Position numbers and translations under genes: made by a program. From UHGV virus genome UHGV-0203358: 41,751 nucleotides of DNA; one strand, given 5' to 3'. The notes under the pieces were generated by a model. That model saw nothing but the letters and a program-made list of their open reading frames with translations. It ran no database searches and had not been told where the DNA came from. Shown here piece after piece: positions 17,210-22,845 of the stretch (position 1 is its first letter; the number at the start of each line of letters is the position of its first letter). Source of the stretch: a virus.

Positions 17210-18736
17210 CTATTTCGCCGTAAACGGCACCACAAAGATGATATATGGTGTTCGCCTGAGACTGTTCTGGTGAGCCACTGGGGAGCTCAGGCGAACACCG
17301 TCGCCCGAGCCTGCCACATCATCCAGCGTGACATCCACCTCGTTTTTCCCGCTGCCGAGCGGGTCGAAGACGATTTTTAAACGGTCGTTGAAAACAAAGA
17401 CCTTGACGAGGAACGTCTGGAACAGCTGCATCCTGTACTGCCGGTCCGAAACATCTCCGCCGCGGAAGCTCTTGAGGTAGCCGACAACCTGATCGCGGGT
17501 GACGTTGATCTGGTCCGCTGTCAACAGCGCCAACTGCTCGGATATCTTCGTGCTTTCCGCCTCGAGCTCCATCAGTCGCGCCTTCGTCGATTCCGTAAAA
17601 ATCCCCGCCTCGATCGCCGCGAGGATGTTTTTTATCGCCTTCGCGTTCTCCGCTTTTTGCTCCTCGAGCATCTTTATCTCCGGCTGATCCTTGTGACGCC
17701 GCTGATACTCCATCACCTCGTCCGCGATCTGGTCGATAATCTCATCACTCATGATCCGCTCGACGAGCGCCCGTGCGACGGCGTCCTCGATGCGGTCGCG
17801 ACCGACGTTGTCTTTTTTGCATCCACTGCCGGTCCGGCGTCCGACGCATGAGTAGTAATAGTACACCGCGCCGGATTTCCCCGCGCCGCACATTCCCGTC
17901 ATCGGCTCGCCGCACTCTCCACAATACAGTTTCCCCGTCAGCTGATAATCAGCCGCGGGGTTTTTCTTTGGCTTGCTCATCGCCGCCATCGCCTCCCGAT
18001 ACAAGCTGTCGTCGATGAGCCGGGGCATACCACCGACGACGCGCGTTTTATCAAAAATGTAAATCCCGAGATACCGCTCGTTGCCGATGATCCGGTGAAA
18101 GCTGTTCCGTCCCCACTCGCGACCGCGCGAAGTCTTCACGCCGCGGGCGTTGAGGTCCATCGCAATCGACGCGATTGTTTCACACGCCGCCACCCGCGCA
18201 TATATCTCGCGCACTATCGCCGCCGCCGGTTCGTCGATCTCAAACCGACCGTCAGCCCCCGACTTATATCCGTATGGCGCCGGACCGTTCGCCCGGCAGT
18301 TCTGCGCGTTGTCCGCCTGCGTCCGCTTGATATCCTCGCCGAGGTTTTCCGAGTAAAACTGGTTCACAGACATCATCGTCCGGAGCGCAAAACGCCCGGC
18401 GGCAGTATTCCCGAACTCCTCCTTCGCGTAGAGCACATTCACACTGCTCCGGGTCATCTCAACTTCAAAATTTAACGCATTCAACATATTTCGCGCAATT
18501 CTGCTCGATTTATATGCTATAATTGTATCAAAGATTTTTTTACCCGCGTCCCGACGCAGACGCTGAAACTGCGGGCGTCGGTCTGAGCGCCCGCTTATCG
18601 CCGCGTCGGCGTATACGTCAATGACCGTCAAGCCGTTCGCCGCCGCGAAAGCCCGGCACTCCGCAACCTGCTGCTCAATCGATTCCTCGCGCTGATTGTG
18701 CGATGAGAACCGGGCATATATCACCGCTCTGCTCAT
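17210..18736 (-). CDS. int: Large serine recombinase (integrase)
   Basis: 'IYARFSS' catalytic Ser, 'D.AISG..RPQF', 'SRIARN', recombinase domain, zinc ribbon 'LYCGECG...YYYSC...C', coiled coil. Confidence 0.95.
   Translation of the reverse strand: MSRAVIYARFSSHNQREESIEQQVAECRAFAAANGLTVIDVYADAAISGRSDRRPQFQRLRRDAGKKIFDTIIAYKSSRIARNMLNALNFEVEMTRSSVNVLYAKEEFGNTAAGRFALRTMMSVNQFYSENLGEDIKRTQADNAQNCRANGPAPYGYKSGADGRFEIDEPAAAIVREIYARVAACETIASIAMDLNARGVKTSRGREWGRNSFHRIIGNERYLGIYIFDKTRVVGGMPRLIDDSLYREAMAAMSKPKKNPAADYQLTGKLYCGECGEPMTGMCGAGKSGAVYYYYSCVGRRTGSGCKKDNVGRDRIEDAVARALVERIMSDEIIDQIADEVMEYQRRHKDQPEIKMLEEQKAENAKAIKNILAAIEAGIFTESTKARLMELEAESTKISEQLALLTADQINVTRDQVVGYLKSFRGGDVSDRQYRMQLFQTFLVKVFVFNDRLKIVFDPLGSGKNEVDVTLDDVAGSGDGVRLSSPVAHQNSLRRTPYIIFVVPFTAK
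17247..17299. other. Candidate attP site
   Basis: Perfect 14-bp inverted arms GGTGTTCGCCTGAG / CTCAGGCGAACACC around a 25-bp core, within the integrase 3' end. Confidence 0.6.
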
Positions 18737-20176: not shown

Positions 20177-20219
20177 TGGTTTTTGCGTAAAAAATAGAAA
20201 AATAAAGGAGAATGTCGAA

Positions 20220-20321
20220 ATGATCACACTGCTCGAAGTCATCATCGCGAAACTCAAAAAAATGACGCCGGAGGAACTGCACGAAGTCTACGCCTACATA
20301 CGGAGGATGAAAACCAAATGA
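20220..20321 (+). CDS. 33-aa micro-protein (candidate antirepressor peptide)
   Basis: RBS AAAGGAG; MITLLEVIIAKLKKMTPEELHEVYAYIRRMKTK; own promoter and terminator; absent from the ORF track. Confidence 0.7.
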   Translation: MITLLEVIIAKLKKMTPEELHEVYAYIRRMKTK

Positions 20322-20322
20322 G

Positions 20323-20357
20323 AAAGGGGCGGTCGCCTGACCGTCCCTCTCTTTTTT
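20323..20357. terminator. Terminator between micro-ORF and repressor
   Basis: AGGGGCGGTC-GCCT-GACCGTCCCT followed by CTCTTTTTT. Confidence 0.8.
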
Positions 20358-20781
20358 ACTCGTCGTCCTGTCGAATCTTGTCTTCGGCTTTCTTAAACTC
20401 CCGGATCACGTCCCGGAGCTTTCGCCAGCCGGTGTCGCTCAGCGCGGATAAAGTCAAGATGAGTTCCGTTTTGAAGTCGTCAGGTTCGTCAGTCAGCGCT
20501 TCGCTGACGAATCCCGCGATCTTCTCACGTCTGGTCATCTTCCGGAACATCTCCCCCGCGCCGGTCTCAAGCCACGCGATATCCACGCCGCATATCTCTG
20601 CTATCTGCTCGAGATAACGTGGGTTCGGCTTGATTCGGTCGTACTCAATGTTTTTTATTGTTCCCAATCCAAGTTTTACTTTTTTTGAGAACTCCGATTG
20701 CGACAACCCGAGCGCTTCGCGCACTTGTTTTACGCGCATATTCGCCTCAGATTCGGCTATATCGAGTATATCATCCTCCAT
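20356..20781 (-). CDS. CI-like XRE repressor without peptidase domain
   Basis: RBS AAAGGAGG then MEDDILD...; 'RVKQVREALGLSQSEFSKKV...IKNIE...WLETGAGEMF'. Confidence 0.88.
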   Translation of the reverse strand: MEDDILDIAESEANMRVKQVREALGLSQSEFSKKVKLGLGTIKNIEYDRIKPNPRYLEQIAEICGVDIAWLETGAGEMFRKMTRREKIAGFVSEALTDEPDDFKTELILTLSALSDTGWRKLRDVIREFKKAEDKIRQDDE

Positions 20782-20805
20782 GCTGCCACCTCCTTTCTTT
20801 ATTAT

Positions 20806-20834
20806 ATTATACCACATTTCGGTGGCGTTGTCAA
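20806..20834 (-). promoter_or_regulatory. Repressor promoter (leftward)
   Basis: Minus strand TTGACA-17 nt-TATAAT with extended TG. Confidence 0.9.
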
Positions 20835-20943
20835 TACCAAAAAAGATTATTTTTTTTTGAAAATGGTCTTGACAAATCCAGAAAAGTATGGTATAATGGT
20901 ATCAACAACACCGAATAAATAAAAAATCGCTATTGACAATACC
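20824..20943. promoter_or_regulatory. Four 15-bp operators, consensus GGTATTGNCAATACC
   Basis: GGCGTTGTCAATACC 20824, GGTCTTGACAAATCC 20865, GGTATCAACAACACC 20898, GCTATTGACAATACC 20929. Confidence 0.75.
20869..20897 (+). promoter_or_regulatory. Early lytic promoter (rightward)
   Basis: TTGACA-17 nt-TATAAT; spacer resembles the 14124 and 16839 promoters. Confidence 0.9.
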
Positions 20944-20959
20944 AAAAGGAGACACCAAA

Positions 20960-21265
20960 ATGGAGACAATAAACAAGAAAGTAACGATCGAAGGCATGGA
21001 TTTCGCCATCGTCAAGGAACCGGCGTGGGGCGAGACCCACCAGTACGGCACGATCCCGCACTCCGAGGTCGACGAGAACGGACGCATAAAACGTGCCTTG
21101 AATGGCTTCGAAATGTGCTGCGCGGCAAGCCCCGAGAAAGCAATTGAGCAGCGCGAAGACGTCCTACTCGCCCGGAAGTGGAAAGCGGAGCACCCGGACG
21201 CGACCGAAATCCAGGAAATGAACGCGGTCGCCGAAATCATCAGACGCAGAGTGGCGGGGGCTTAA
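20960..21265 (+). CDS. First early gene, hypothetical protein
   Basis: RBS AAAGGAG and ATG 20960 (METINKK...); no recognisable HTH. Confidence 0.8.
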   Translation: METINKKVTIEGMDFAIVKEPAWGETHQYGTIPHSEVDENGRIKRALNGFEMCCAASPEKAIEQREDVLLARKWKAEHPDATEIQEMNAVAEIIRRRVAGA

Positions 21266-21307
21266 GCTCCCCCGGTAATGCGGTCAGGCAGACGGTCACA
21301 AACCCCG
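21245..21307 (+). ncRNA. Candidate circularly permuted twister self-cleaving ribozyme
   Basis: CGCA-GAGUG-[hairpin P1]-UAA-UGCG-GU-C-AGGCA-G-ACGG-UCACAAAC-CCCG; P2, T1 (GUG/CAC) and T2 (GU/AC) pairings all possible; P4 and the base of P1 are imperfect. Confidence 0.6.
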
Positions 21308-21340
21308 ACAGCCGCATAAAAACAGAAAGGAGAAAAAACC

Positions 21341-21520
21341 ATGGCAAACACCACTACCCTCGACAAGGACACGAAATTCCTCGCCGAGATGATCCAGGAA
21401 CTCAAGACCATAAAAAGCGAGACGGCTCGACGCGACATCCTCAACATCGCGAAGGGCATCGTGATCGGCGAAACCCCAAGAAAGGAGACCGCAGAAAATG
21501 ACGCTATCAGCACTCAGTAA
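21341..21520 (+). CDS. 59-aa helical micro-protein
   Basis: RBS AAAGGAG; MANTTTLDKDTKFLAEMIQELKTIKSETARRDILNIAKGIVIG...; absent from the track. Confidence 0.75.
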   Translation: MANTTTLDKDTKFLAEMIQELKTIKSETARRDILNIAKGIVIGETPRKETAENDAISTQ

Positions 21521-21650
21521 AGAAAACCGCGAGCTGCTCGCAAAAGCGACGCTCGACGCCGTAAGGCGGCACATCGAAAAACAAAAACAGGAGGAGACCA
21601 AAAATGACAACACAAACCATGGACAACAAAGACCGGCTCGCAACGATTAA
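21498..21650 (+). CDS. 50-aa micro-protein
   Basis: RBS AAAGGAG; MTLSALSKENRELLAKATLDAVRRHIEK...; absent from the track. Confidence 0.65.
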   Translation: MTLSALSKENRELLAKATLDAVRRHIEKQKQEETKNDNTNHGQQRPARND

Positions 21651-21909
21651 AAGCGCACAGAACGCGCTGGTATACGACCTCATCATGCAGGGGCTCAGAG
21701 CCGCGACGGCATCAAAAGTCCATCTCAGCGTCTGGGTGGACAAAGACGGCGACCTGACGGTCAACACCGATAGAAAGCACCAAAGGTCATATATCCGGTT
21801 CGGCGACGACATCAAAAACTCGGACATCGACGTCCTTGTCGATATCGTCGAATGGGTGCTCGACGGAGCGCCGGAGGAGAAAGACGAGGAGGAAACAGAC
21901 GATGAGTGA
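21604..21909 (+). CDS. Hypothetical protein
   Basis: RBS AGGAGG; 101 aa. Confidence 0.75.
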   Translation: MTTQTMDNKDRLATIKSAQNALVYDLIMQGLRAATASKVHLSVWVDKDGDLTVNTDRKHQRSYIRFGDDIKNSDIDVLVDIVEWVLDGAPEEKDEEETDDE

Positions 21910-22162
21910 CGTCACCTACGAAAAAATGCTCGAGGTCCAGACCGACCTCATCCGCCGGCAGGACCGCAAAATCGACGAGCTGACCGCGGCGAAAAAAGCC
22001 CTCGAGGTCACCGCACAGACCCTCGCCGAAGCCCTCGTCCGGGAGCTCGACCGCGAAGGACGCGACCGGGCTTTCGTCCCGGCAAAGGAAATCAACCGCG
22101 GCGACGTCCGTTTCCGCGTCGAGCAGACCATCGGCGGCGACATCCTGCTCGTCAGGATATGA
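21902..22162 (+). CDS. Coiled-coil hypothetical protein
   Basis: RBS GGAGG and ATG 21902 (MSDVTYEK...). Confidence 0.7.
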   Translation: MSDVTYEKMLEVQTDLIRRQDRKIDELTAAKKALEVTAQTLAEALVRELDREGRDRAFVPAKEINRGDVRFRVEQTIGGDILLVRI

Positions 22163-22257
22163 AAAAGGCTCGCGCAGAACTGCAACTTCCGCGCGAGCCC
22201 CAAAAAAGGAGACTTTTATGACACCAACATTATACCACAGAAAAGGAGATTTGTCAA
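22162..22257 (-). promoter_or_regulatory. Antisense promoter plus hairpin/terminator (candidate short antisense RNA)
   Basis: Minus strand TTGACA-17-TATAAT at 22257-22229; GGCTCGCGC...GCGCGAGCC hairpin followed by a U-run on the minus strand. Confidence 0.6.
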
Positions 22258-22845
22258 GTGTTACTGCAAAAAGCAAAGAAGATCTGTAAAGCCGGAACGA
22301 CGGTCATCGTCAACCGGCTGAACGGCGACCAGTGGCTCGGAACCACCGGAGCTATTTACCCCGTCTTCGGCGGAATCGACCTCACCGAATCATCGGTGCG
22401 AACACTCTTTGACGTCCGCTCGGACGACGAGAGCTTCGCCGTCCGCACCCTCTCAGAGGAGGTTTTCACCGACCGCGGCTACTCCCTCGAGGACGTCGCC
22501 GACGAGGAGCACGATCTCGCGCTCACATCATGGACGCTCGAGTACAAGGGGCGGAGCTTCATTCCCCTGACCGCCGCGGCGGACACCTCGACCATAGCTT
22601 TCATCGACGCCGACCACCTCGCGCCGCTCAAGGACTGTGACGAGCTGTCGCTCTGGCTCCGGTTCGCGAACAACGGAACTTACGTCGTCGCGAAAAGCGG
22701 ATTCCTCGTCGTCGCTCTGATCTCGGTCGAGAAAATCCCGGACGTCGCGCGGTTGTCCCTCGCGATGATCGCGTCAAACGCCGACAGCGTCAGCAGTGAC
22801 AAATACAAAAGAGCGGAGCTTGTCCCGCTGGAGGAAATCAAATGA
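22258..22845 (+). CDS. Hypothetical protein
   Basis: RBS AAGGAG and GTG; 195 aa. Confidence 0.75.
   Translation: MLLQKAKKICKAGTTVIVNRLNGDQWLGTTGAIYPVFGGIDLTESSVRTLFDVRSDDESFAVRTLSEEVFTDRGYSLEDVADEEHDLALTSWTLEYKGRSFIPLTAAADTSTIAFIDADHLAPLKDCDELSLWLRFANNGTYVVAKSGFLVVALISVEKIPDVARLSLAMIASNADSVSSDKYKRAELVPLEEIK

Follow-up and report, generated by a model that had tools for sequence, protein, structure and literature searches.

A type-P5 twister ribozyme lies at the boundary of the first and second early genes of the phage genome UHGV-0203358; the whole stretch of 41,751 nucleotides that was analysed is called the window. The preferred reading, given a probability of roughly 60%, is that the ribozyme belongs to the early operon of a temperate phage and likely cuts the transcript at U21276/A21277 when the stop codon of gene 1 is free of ribosomes, that the 3' piece then refolds, and that the ribozyme core is also a site of gene exchange, with an Endo VII gene taken up at P3 in two relatives. 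Judged from its sequence the ribozyme is ordinary and the locus unusual, with a GU/AC subfamily with extended P4, an anti-P2 tail, a crossover in the core and, above all, an allele split by an endonuclease gene. The exchange breakpoint inside the core and the Endo VII gene inserted exactly at the P3 site in the two relatives appear to be new.

Identity and anatomy of the ribozyme

The Rfam covariance model Twister-P5 (RF02684) matches 21245-21308 on the plus strand over its full length (model 1-58 of 58) with 40.6 bits (E 3.5e-05), only 3 bits above the cut-off of 37.6, and it is the sole Rfam family at gathering score across the whole 41.7-kb window. Weak matches to Proteo-phage-1, sR53 and others (E 3.9-5.6) were dismissed as chance. 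At the level of sequence this confirms 21245-21308 as a type-P5 twister ribozyme, a known class in a known setting. Type P5 belongs to the twister class that Roth et al. (2014) are said to have described.

A preliminary description of this DNA had read the same nucleotides as a permuted twister core and named a covariance search as the check; the match above cut-off over the full model bears the assignment out. Every element listed there is found where it was placed, and its catalytic G21249 and A21277 and cleavage site agree with the consensus alignment; what it missed is an extension of P4 (21287-89/21311-13) and a slipped register of P1. The elements are given below, those of P2, GAGUG, the cleavage site and the T2 strand as aligned to the Rfam consensus.

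21245-48, plus strand: 3' strand of P2 (P2'), CGCA
21249-53, plus strand: GAGUG, with putative general base G21249, A21250 and the T1 strand 21251-53
21254-21275, plus strand: P1 hairpin, with the UAA stop codon 21263-65 in its loop and an unpaired base G21254.G21275
21276-78, plus strand: predicted cleavage site U21276/A21277, followed by A21278
21279-82, plus strand: 5' strand of P2, UGCG
21283-84, plus strand: T2 strand, GU
21287-21313, plus strand: extended P4, made up of 21287-89/21311-13, an internal loop and 21293-95/21305-07 with one extra C
21296-303, plus strand: loop L4, UCACAAAC, which carries the partners of T1 and T2
21311-21317, plus strand: anti-P2 tail, whose predicted partner is 21278-84, either in the 3' product or with P2' occluded

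Pseudoknots T1 (3 bp, 21251-53/21297-99) and T2 (2 bp, 21283-84/21302-03) are both Watson-Crick paired in the window, and the consensus-line nucleotides G21249, A21250, A21277, A21278, U21296, A21300 and A21301 are kept. G21249 and A21250 owe their assigned roles to analogy with the O. sativa twister, where the counterparts are G45 and A7 (PMC5408937, in part). Three permutations of twister are known, type P5 among them, and P3 and P5 are optional (PMC5408937, in part). A closed P1 and a missing P5 therefore define the type and are no defects; the Rfam model itself has no P5 stem, and the window copy has P1, P2 and P4 with its termini at the P5 position.

Position in the early operon

The ribozyme overlaps the end of the first early gene behind a promoter-like site, which agrees with the location in the first early cistron proposed in the preliminary description. 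The stop codon of this gene lies in the P1 loop, as had also been noted there.

17210-18736: large serine integrase, to the left of the ribozyme locus
20356..20817, minus strand: XRE/cI-like repressor gene (PHROG repressor families, best E 6e-16), divergent from the early operon
20869..20897, plus strand: rightward sigma-70-type promoter-like site, 12/12 consensus with extended -10 (8 such sites found against 1.3 expected)
20960..21265, plus strand: first early gene (gene 1, 101 aa), whose last six codons and stop codon are ribozyme sequence
21326..21520, plus strand: Shine-Dalgarno sequence (21326-32) and conserved 59-aa gene (21341-21520)

The site at 20869-20897 is likely the early lytic promoter, judging from its match to the consensus. 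Recombination and replication genes are found to the right of the locus. The best named matches of the integrase are in Faecalibacterium and Roseburia phages (41-50%), which suggests a clostridial host; no named phage is similar over the ribozyme region.

The 59-aa gene has homologues in L263 (92%) and in L264 and L178 (66%), in each case downstream of the same ribozyme 3' half, and by this evidence it travels with that half. Twelve of the 14 listed changes in run X1 fall at third codon positions of the frame (hand count). No family was found for the 59-aa protein, nor for the 101-aa protein in Pfam, PHROG or the Atlas, where matches under 0.9 were treated as leads only. A single GTDB match to gene 1 covered only 13 residues and was rejected.

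Two further features of the window lie near the operon. On the minus strand, 22257-22165 holds a 12/12 promoter-like site directed against the early operon and next to it a 15-bp terminator-like hairpin, a candidate for an antisense RNA of about 60 nt. At 20220-20348 an ORF of 33 aa with a Shine-Dalgarno sequence is convergent with the repressor gene and has a terminator-like hairpin in common with it. No family match was found for this ORF, which resembles small repressor-binding peptides.

Variation within the family

A pattern scan of IMG/VR, from which 122 of about 210 stretches were obtained and to which further loci were added, gave 113 twister matches that passed a filter requiring pairing in P2, T1 and T2. 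Pseudoknot types were counted in 87 distinct matches with L4 read without requiring pairing. T1 is GUG/CAC, the commonest form, in 81 of the 87. T2 is GC/GC in 71, GU/AC in 11, GU/GC in 3, GC/AC in none and of another kind in 2, so that GU goes with AC in 11/87 and GC with AC in 0/87, among copies that are not phylogenetically independent. This covariation bears out the earlier view that GU/AC is a compensatory form of GC/GC. The first P1 position is A.G in 71 of the 113 matches and G.G in 6; by these sequences an unpaired P1 base is usual for the family.

The GU/AC subfamily was aligned in 28 rows, consisting of the window and 27 of 46 GU/AC-pattern loci picked by eye from 28-nt matches. The extra nucleotide (C at 21304 in the window) is kept in 24 of the 28 rows, and P4 is lengthened across the internal loop by 21287-89/21311-13. 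The extended P4 beats 500 of 500 shuffles both on paired cells and on covariation score; it does not do so for the number of double changes (101 of 500 shuffles). A C-G to A-U change at P4 pair 21293/21307 occurs in 2 of 20 distinct rows. The G-G mismatch, extra C and absent P5, on account of which the window copy had been suggested to be possibly slow or dead, are all normal for the family.

At L185 and L200 the twister-like 3' halves are of the GU/AC kind, and their extended P4 is nearly fully paired. Three to six P5 twisters are arrayed in L008, L026/L046, L048 and L208/L209, each between small genes.

Gene exchange at the core

Relatives match the window on opposite sides of the ribozyme core. 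Locus L263 matches 20180-20912 (77%) and 21272-22600 (93%) with nothing between, and has a different first gene and a different 5' half of the ribozyme; L178 and L264 have the same right edge at 21272. Loci L125, L128, L126 and L001 match from 20947/58 to 21295/311 and have gene 1 and the 5' half in common with the window, and their 3' halves or downstream genes differ. By lineage the window copy goes with L125/L128 in its 5' half and with L178/L263 in its 3' half, and the crossover with relatives falls in the region 21276-21284. The window ribozyme is thus a recombinant and the core a recurring breakpoint. These comparisons show that relatives exchange the first gene together with a 5' half-ribozyme, and at the DNA level the conserved core is the place where phages swap first-gene cassettes. 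The literature search found no paper that joins ribozymes with phage mosaicism and gene cassettes.

A loose end in run X20 shows a further chimera, which joins an L125-type P1 to the window's 3' half. Runs X1, X2, X3, X5, X11 and X17 have a near-identical gene 1 and ribozyme and a promoter/operator segment different from window 20850-20945, which makes the left edge of the cassette a breakpoint as well. Locus L353 has an L125-type ribozyme and downstream gene with a different upstream gene, and the P4 G next to L4 is changed.

Predicted folding and activity

In the free RNA the pair probabilities are 0.62-0.97 for P2 and 0.89-0.95 for the extended P4. P1 contains two extra nucleotides and can therefore slip into a register that captures U21252-G21253 of the T1 strand, so that the fold compatible with catalysis costs 4.4 kcal/mol, computed with nearest-neighbour energies that leave out T1, T2 and Mg2+. 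This cost ranks the window allele 88th of 103; that of L125 is 0.7. Fold z-scores, at -0.5 to -1.4, are uninformative. Folding did not predict a true P5 stem between the flanks, and a local GUC/GAC hairpin at 21283-93 was rejected because it is present only in a truncated 64-mer and falls to 0.01 once the tail is included.

Activity can be compared with the CHiTA tests, which were made on type-P1 twisters only. In these, imperfect P1, P2 and P4 stems are tolerated, and it is the pseudoknots and catalytic residues that are sensitive (PMC11662667, in part), all of which are intact in the window allele. An imperfect P4 pair nearest L4 lowers the mean cleaved fraction from 0.76 to 0.58 (PMC11662667, in part), and the extra C of the window lies at, or adjoins, this pair.

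The ribozyme region is covered by contigs from runs on faeces, pig gut, manure and wastewater. In runs X1, X11 and X17, for which all listed substitutions are accounted for, none falls within 21245-21316, so the extra C does not stem from faulty assembly. Gene 1 is almost equally invariant and differs at only one site in these runs, so the identity reflects recent shared ancestry and not selection. A contig that starts at 21276 was considered as a trace of the cut and rejected as an assembly break at the shared core. The RNA-labelled runs X19 and X20 gave short contigs only, and X20 is probably DNA.

The window allele could instead be a chimera formed recently from two twister lineages, slow or dead as a ribozyme and maintained solely as a linker for recombination and a spacer for the Shine-Dalgarno sequence. 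The join of an L125/L128-type 5' half to an L178/L263-type 3' half, the cost of the slipped P1 and the recent spread indicated by X1, X11 and X17 would fit, as would the 5' halves at L248, L257 and L365, which have P1 intact and no P4, run directly into a Shine-Dalgarno sequence and are apparently decayed. However, each half is normal for its lineage, all catalytic and pseudoknot positions are intact and the energies omit T1, T2 and Mg2+. A slow or dead allele is considered improbable.

Overlap with the first gene and the downstream tail

Gene 1 has 41 homologues at 70-98% identity. The C-terminal tail encoded by the ribozyme is found in 37 of them, all with the same stop codon, and the other four stop earlier. 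The ribozyme is absent from 4 of the 41 homologues and from 3 of 7 examined gene-1 loci, and is therefore dispensable. The ribozyme-free form is seen in L124, L127 and L129, which diverge directly after a common CGCAG. Behind the ribozyme-free allele of these three loci comes a long ORF that has an NPPF-type motif and, judged by eye, looks methyltransferase-like.

Among 77 distinct phage cores with enough upstream DNA, 49 have the end of an ORF between -4 and the cleavage site. The stops cluster at -4, -3, +7 or in P1, and the 49 ORFs come from 46 unrelated protein clusters. A stop triplet at -3 ends a real ORF in 19 of 27 cases and one at -4 in 11 of 16, against a background of 8%. Overlap with a stop codon is thus common across phage P5 twisters and not special to the window locus.

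The anti-P2 tail contains a second CGCA (21313-16). The helix 21278-84/21311-17 has a probability of 0.02-0.03 in the free RNA and of 0.84-1.0 with the 5' strand masked to 21271-21277 or cut off; under the masking P4 falls below 0.1. The P2 strand is captured by a downstream tail in the 3' product of 72 out of 103 copies, compared with 30-47 when the tails are shuffled (30 shuffles). The 7-bp helix as such is not conserved: its outer pair is kept in 2 of 20 distinct rows, and the G-C at column 6 is broken in 10 of 20. No compensatory change was seen in these rows, which is uninformative because one arm of the helix is the invariant core.

The preliminary description had proposed this pairing as a competitor of P2 in a switch. 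The idea has genuine support, though from computation alone, in the helix predicted when P2' is occluded; the poor conservation of the helix and the missing compensatory change speak against it. In the strict form of this idea, a ribosome terminating at 21263-65 strips P2', 21311-17 captures UGCG and the ribozyme is locked off, so that only transcripts with untranslated gene 1 are cut. The masking result, the placing of stops in 49/77 copies with real stops at -3 far above background and the common stop codon of all 37 tailed homologues agree with such gating. Dense packing of phage genes can also account for the stop position, which varies freely among copies; moreover, the UGA at +7 and the UAA at the cleavage site are inherent in the consensus, the helix is poorly conserved, and a role after cleavage accounts for the tail equally well. 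Twister cleavage rates are 1-10 per min (PMC5408937, in part), slow enough for interference by ribosomes, so that damping is possible and strict gating is still a live rival, though a rather unlikely one.

In the preferred reading, cleavage followed by refolding, the ribozyme would fold during transcription and cut U21276/A21277 whenever the stop codon is momentarily free of ribosomes; ribosomes terminating on gene 1 would damp cleavage rather than gate it on and off. The 5' product would hold the complete gene 1 with an 11-nt 3' UTR and end in the P1 hairpin. The 3' product would begin with a 5'-OH and a 64-nt leader in which the Shine-Dalgarno sequence is left free, and it is predicted to refold into a hairpin that starts at its second base. 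The two products would then have separate lifetimes. The anti-P2 helix is equally well accounted for as this product-refolding hairpin. In B. subtilis a 5' hairpin stabilises mRNA and RNase J1 degrades the 5'-OH product of glmS (PMC3997798, section 7); by analogy with RNase J of this species the end hairpin may shield the 3' product from 5'-exonuclease, which would give the tail a purpose without a switch.

Endonuclease insertion in two relatives

In L001 and L126 the twister is split by 419 nt between T2 and P4, that is, at the P3 site (L001 3300-3718, L126 3329-3747). The insert consists of a Shine-Dalgarno sequence and an ORF of 134 aa whose stop codon closes it, and compared with the empty alleles L125 and L128 no host base has been lost. 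The protein matches PF02945 (Endo VII) with 76.8 bits and has a C-terminal domain CX2C-DHDH-R-CX2C-N, the full DHHRN motif, with an N-terminal cysteine region ahead of it. PF02945 was found in two of four genomes tested, L125 and L128 being empty, and the window has no Endo VII homologue (best E 0.68). An identical insert protein is found on seven contigs. No intron family was found in L001 (Rfam, E<=0.5), only the twister half, and the insert is nothing but the Shine-Dalgarno sequence and the ORF, which does not fit a mobile group I intron.

L126 is identical to L125 over 200 nt upstream and the 40-nt 5' half. Between L001 and L126, the only two carriers seen, the inserts are identical at 416 of 419 positions (99.3%) and the adjoining 300 nt upstream at 82-92%, which may point to lateral spread; that reading is weakened by the wider flanks, which are about 95% identical, and by the small number of carriers. 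GC content is 42% in the inserts and 57% in the 300 nt upstream. The endonuclease insert is likely a selfish gene that uses the ribozyme as a landing site.

The ends of the insert can close a 3-bp P3, GAC/GUC in L001 and GGC/GCC in L126. Two of the five positions at which L001 and L126 differ within 449 nt are accounted for by the compensatory change from A-U to G-C in this stem (chance by simulation about 0.002, post hoc), a third difference keeps T1 as a wobble, and the catalytic positions are intact in both. It is tempting to suggest, as a tentative possibility only, that the endonuclease targets the conserved twister and lands in P3, that the ribozyme still folds with a coding loop of 419 nt in it and releases an endonuclease mRNA with a short leader, that the core also serves as the crossover for early genes and that the GU/AC 3' half of the window, different at the insertion site, is an immune allele; small ribozymes would thus serve homing endonucleases as group I introns do.

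It is somewhat more probable that the insert simply destroys the ribozyme, or that two deletions occurred in a ribozyme-gene-ribozyme array, and that the apparent P3 is coincidental. The split P3 has a pair probability of 0.001-0.002, enforcing P2, P3 and P4 together costs 4-5 kcal/mol, and P4 of L126 reaches only 0.15-0.23. The case is a single event on two contigs, a 2-nt AG repeat stands at both insert junctions, the start of the insert resembles the J/P4 strand of the GU/AC subfamily, and tolerance of a long P3 is reported only for hairpins of more than 50 nt (PMC11662667, section 33). Against this stand the precise insertion, the compensatory pair with the kept T1 wobble and the intact catalytic positions.

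Beyond the L001 and L126 contigs no further split twisters were found among 46 loci or among 111 distinct 5'-half matches, which were drawn from 119 of 121 loci and 36 of 64 collection parts and include 41 loci with flanks too short for a distant P4. Of 41 Endo VII-related loci, the 39 others have no twister 5' half in their vicinity. The literature search, with most subscription papers outside its scope, turned up no account of a small self-cleaving ribozyme with an ORF inside it; the searches of PMC10085705 (in part) discarded candidates that carried very long unstructured insertions.

Comparison with known systems

The window copy resembles the type-P5 twister RF02684 in its permutation, stems P1, P2 and P4, pseudoknots T1 and T2, conserved G and A and phage context (PMC5408937 and PMC10085705, both in part). 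It differs from the typical member in its GU/AC T2, its extra C, an extended P4 in place of P3 and P5 and its chimeric halves, and in that one of its alleles is interrupted by a coding insert of 419 nt.

Clustered prophage hammerheads are likewise self-cleaving RNAs between phage cistrons of variable identity, for which polycistronic processing has been proposed, and in tandem they cut native polycistronic RNAs of about 2 kb in vitro (PMC3088659, in part). Hammerheads of this kind flank single genes, whereas a single RF02684 match per genome was found in all five relatives searched. Stop-codon overlap and recombination at the ribozyme are seen here and are not mentioned for the hammerheads in the accessible part of PMC3088659.

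As in the glmS/RNase J1 pathway (PMC3997798, section 7), self-cleavage would give an mRNA with a 5'-OH end in what is likely a Firmicute host. Unlike glmS, the twister needs no cofactor, and its 3' product is predicted to be capped by a hairpin and hence stabilised, not destabilised. The function of self-cleaving ribozymes in bacteria and phages has been largely elusive (PMC6765202, section 13). Behind gene 1 there is now a natural allelic series with no ribozyme, an intact GC/GC form, the chimeric GU/AC form and the endonuclease-split form, which makes processing, ribosome coupling and homing directly testable behind one gene.

The insert is similar to DHHRN homing endonucleases such as F-CphI in having the motif in its C-terminal half, in its optional presence and in its precise insertion (PMC6083498, in part). 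Known DHHRN endonucleases are free-standing or in group I introns according to the same partial source, and the insert in contrast sits within a small self-cleaving ribozyme that is unable to splice it out. Cleavage by the split form would make it a small ribozyme that naturally folds around a protein-coding gene and would give homing endonucleases a new refuge, and covariance searches would miss split ribozymes of this kind. A further Endo VII homologue of 133 aa (P0043), 52% identical to the inserted protein, is found on three contigs.
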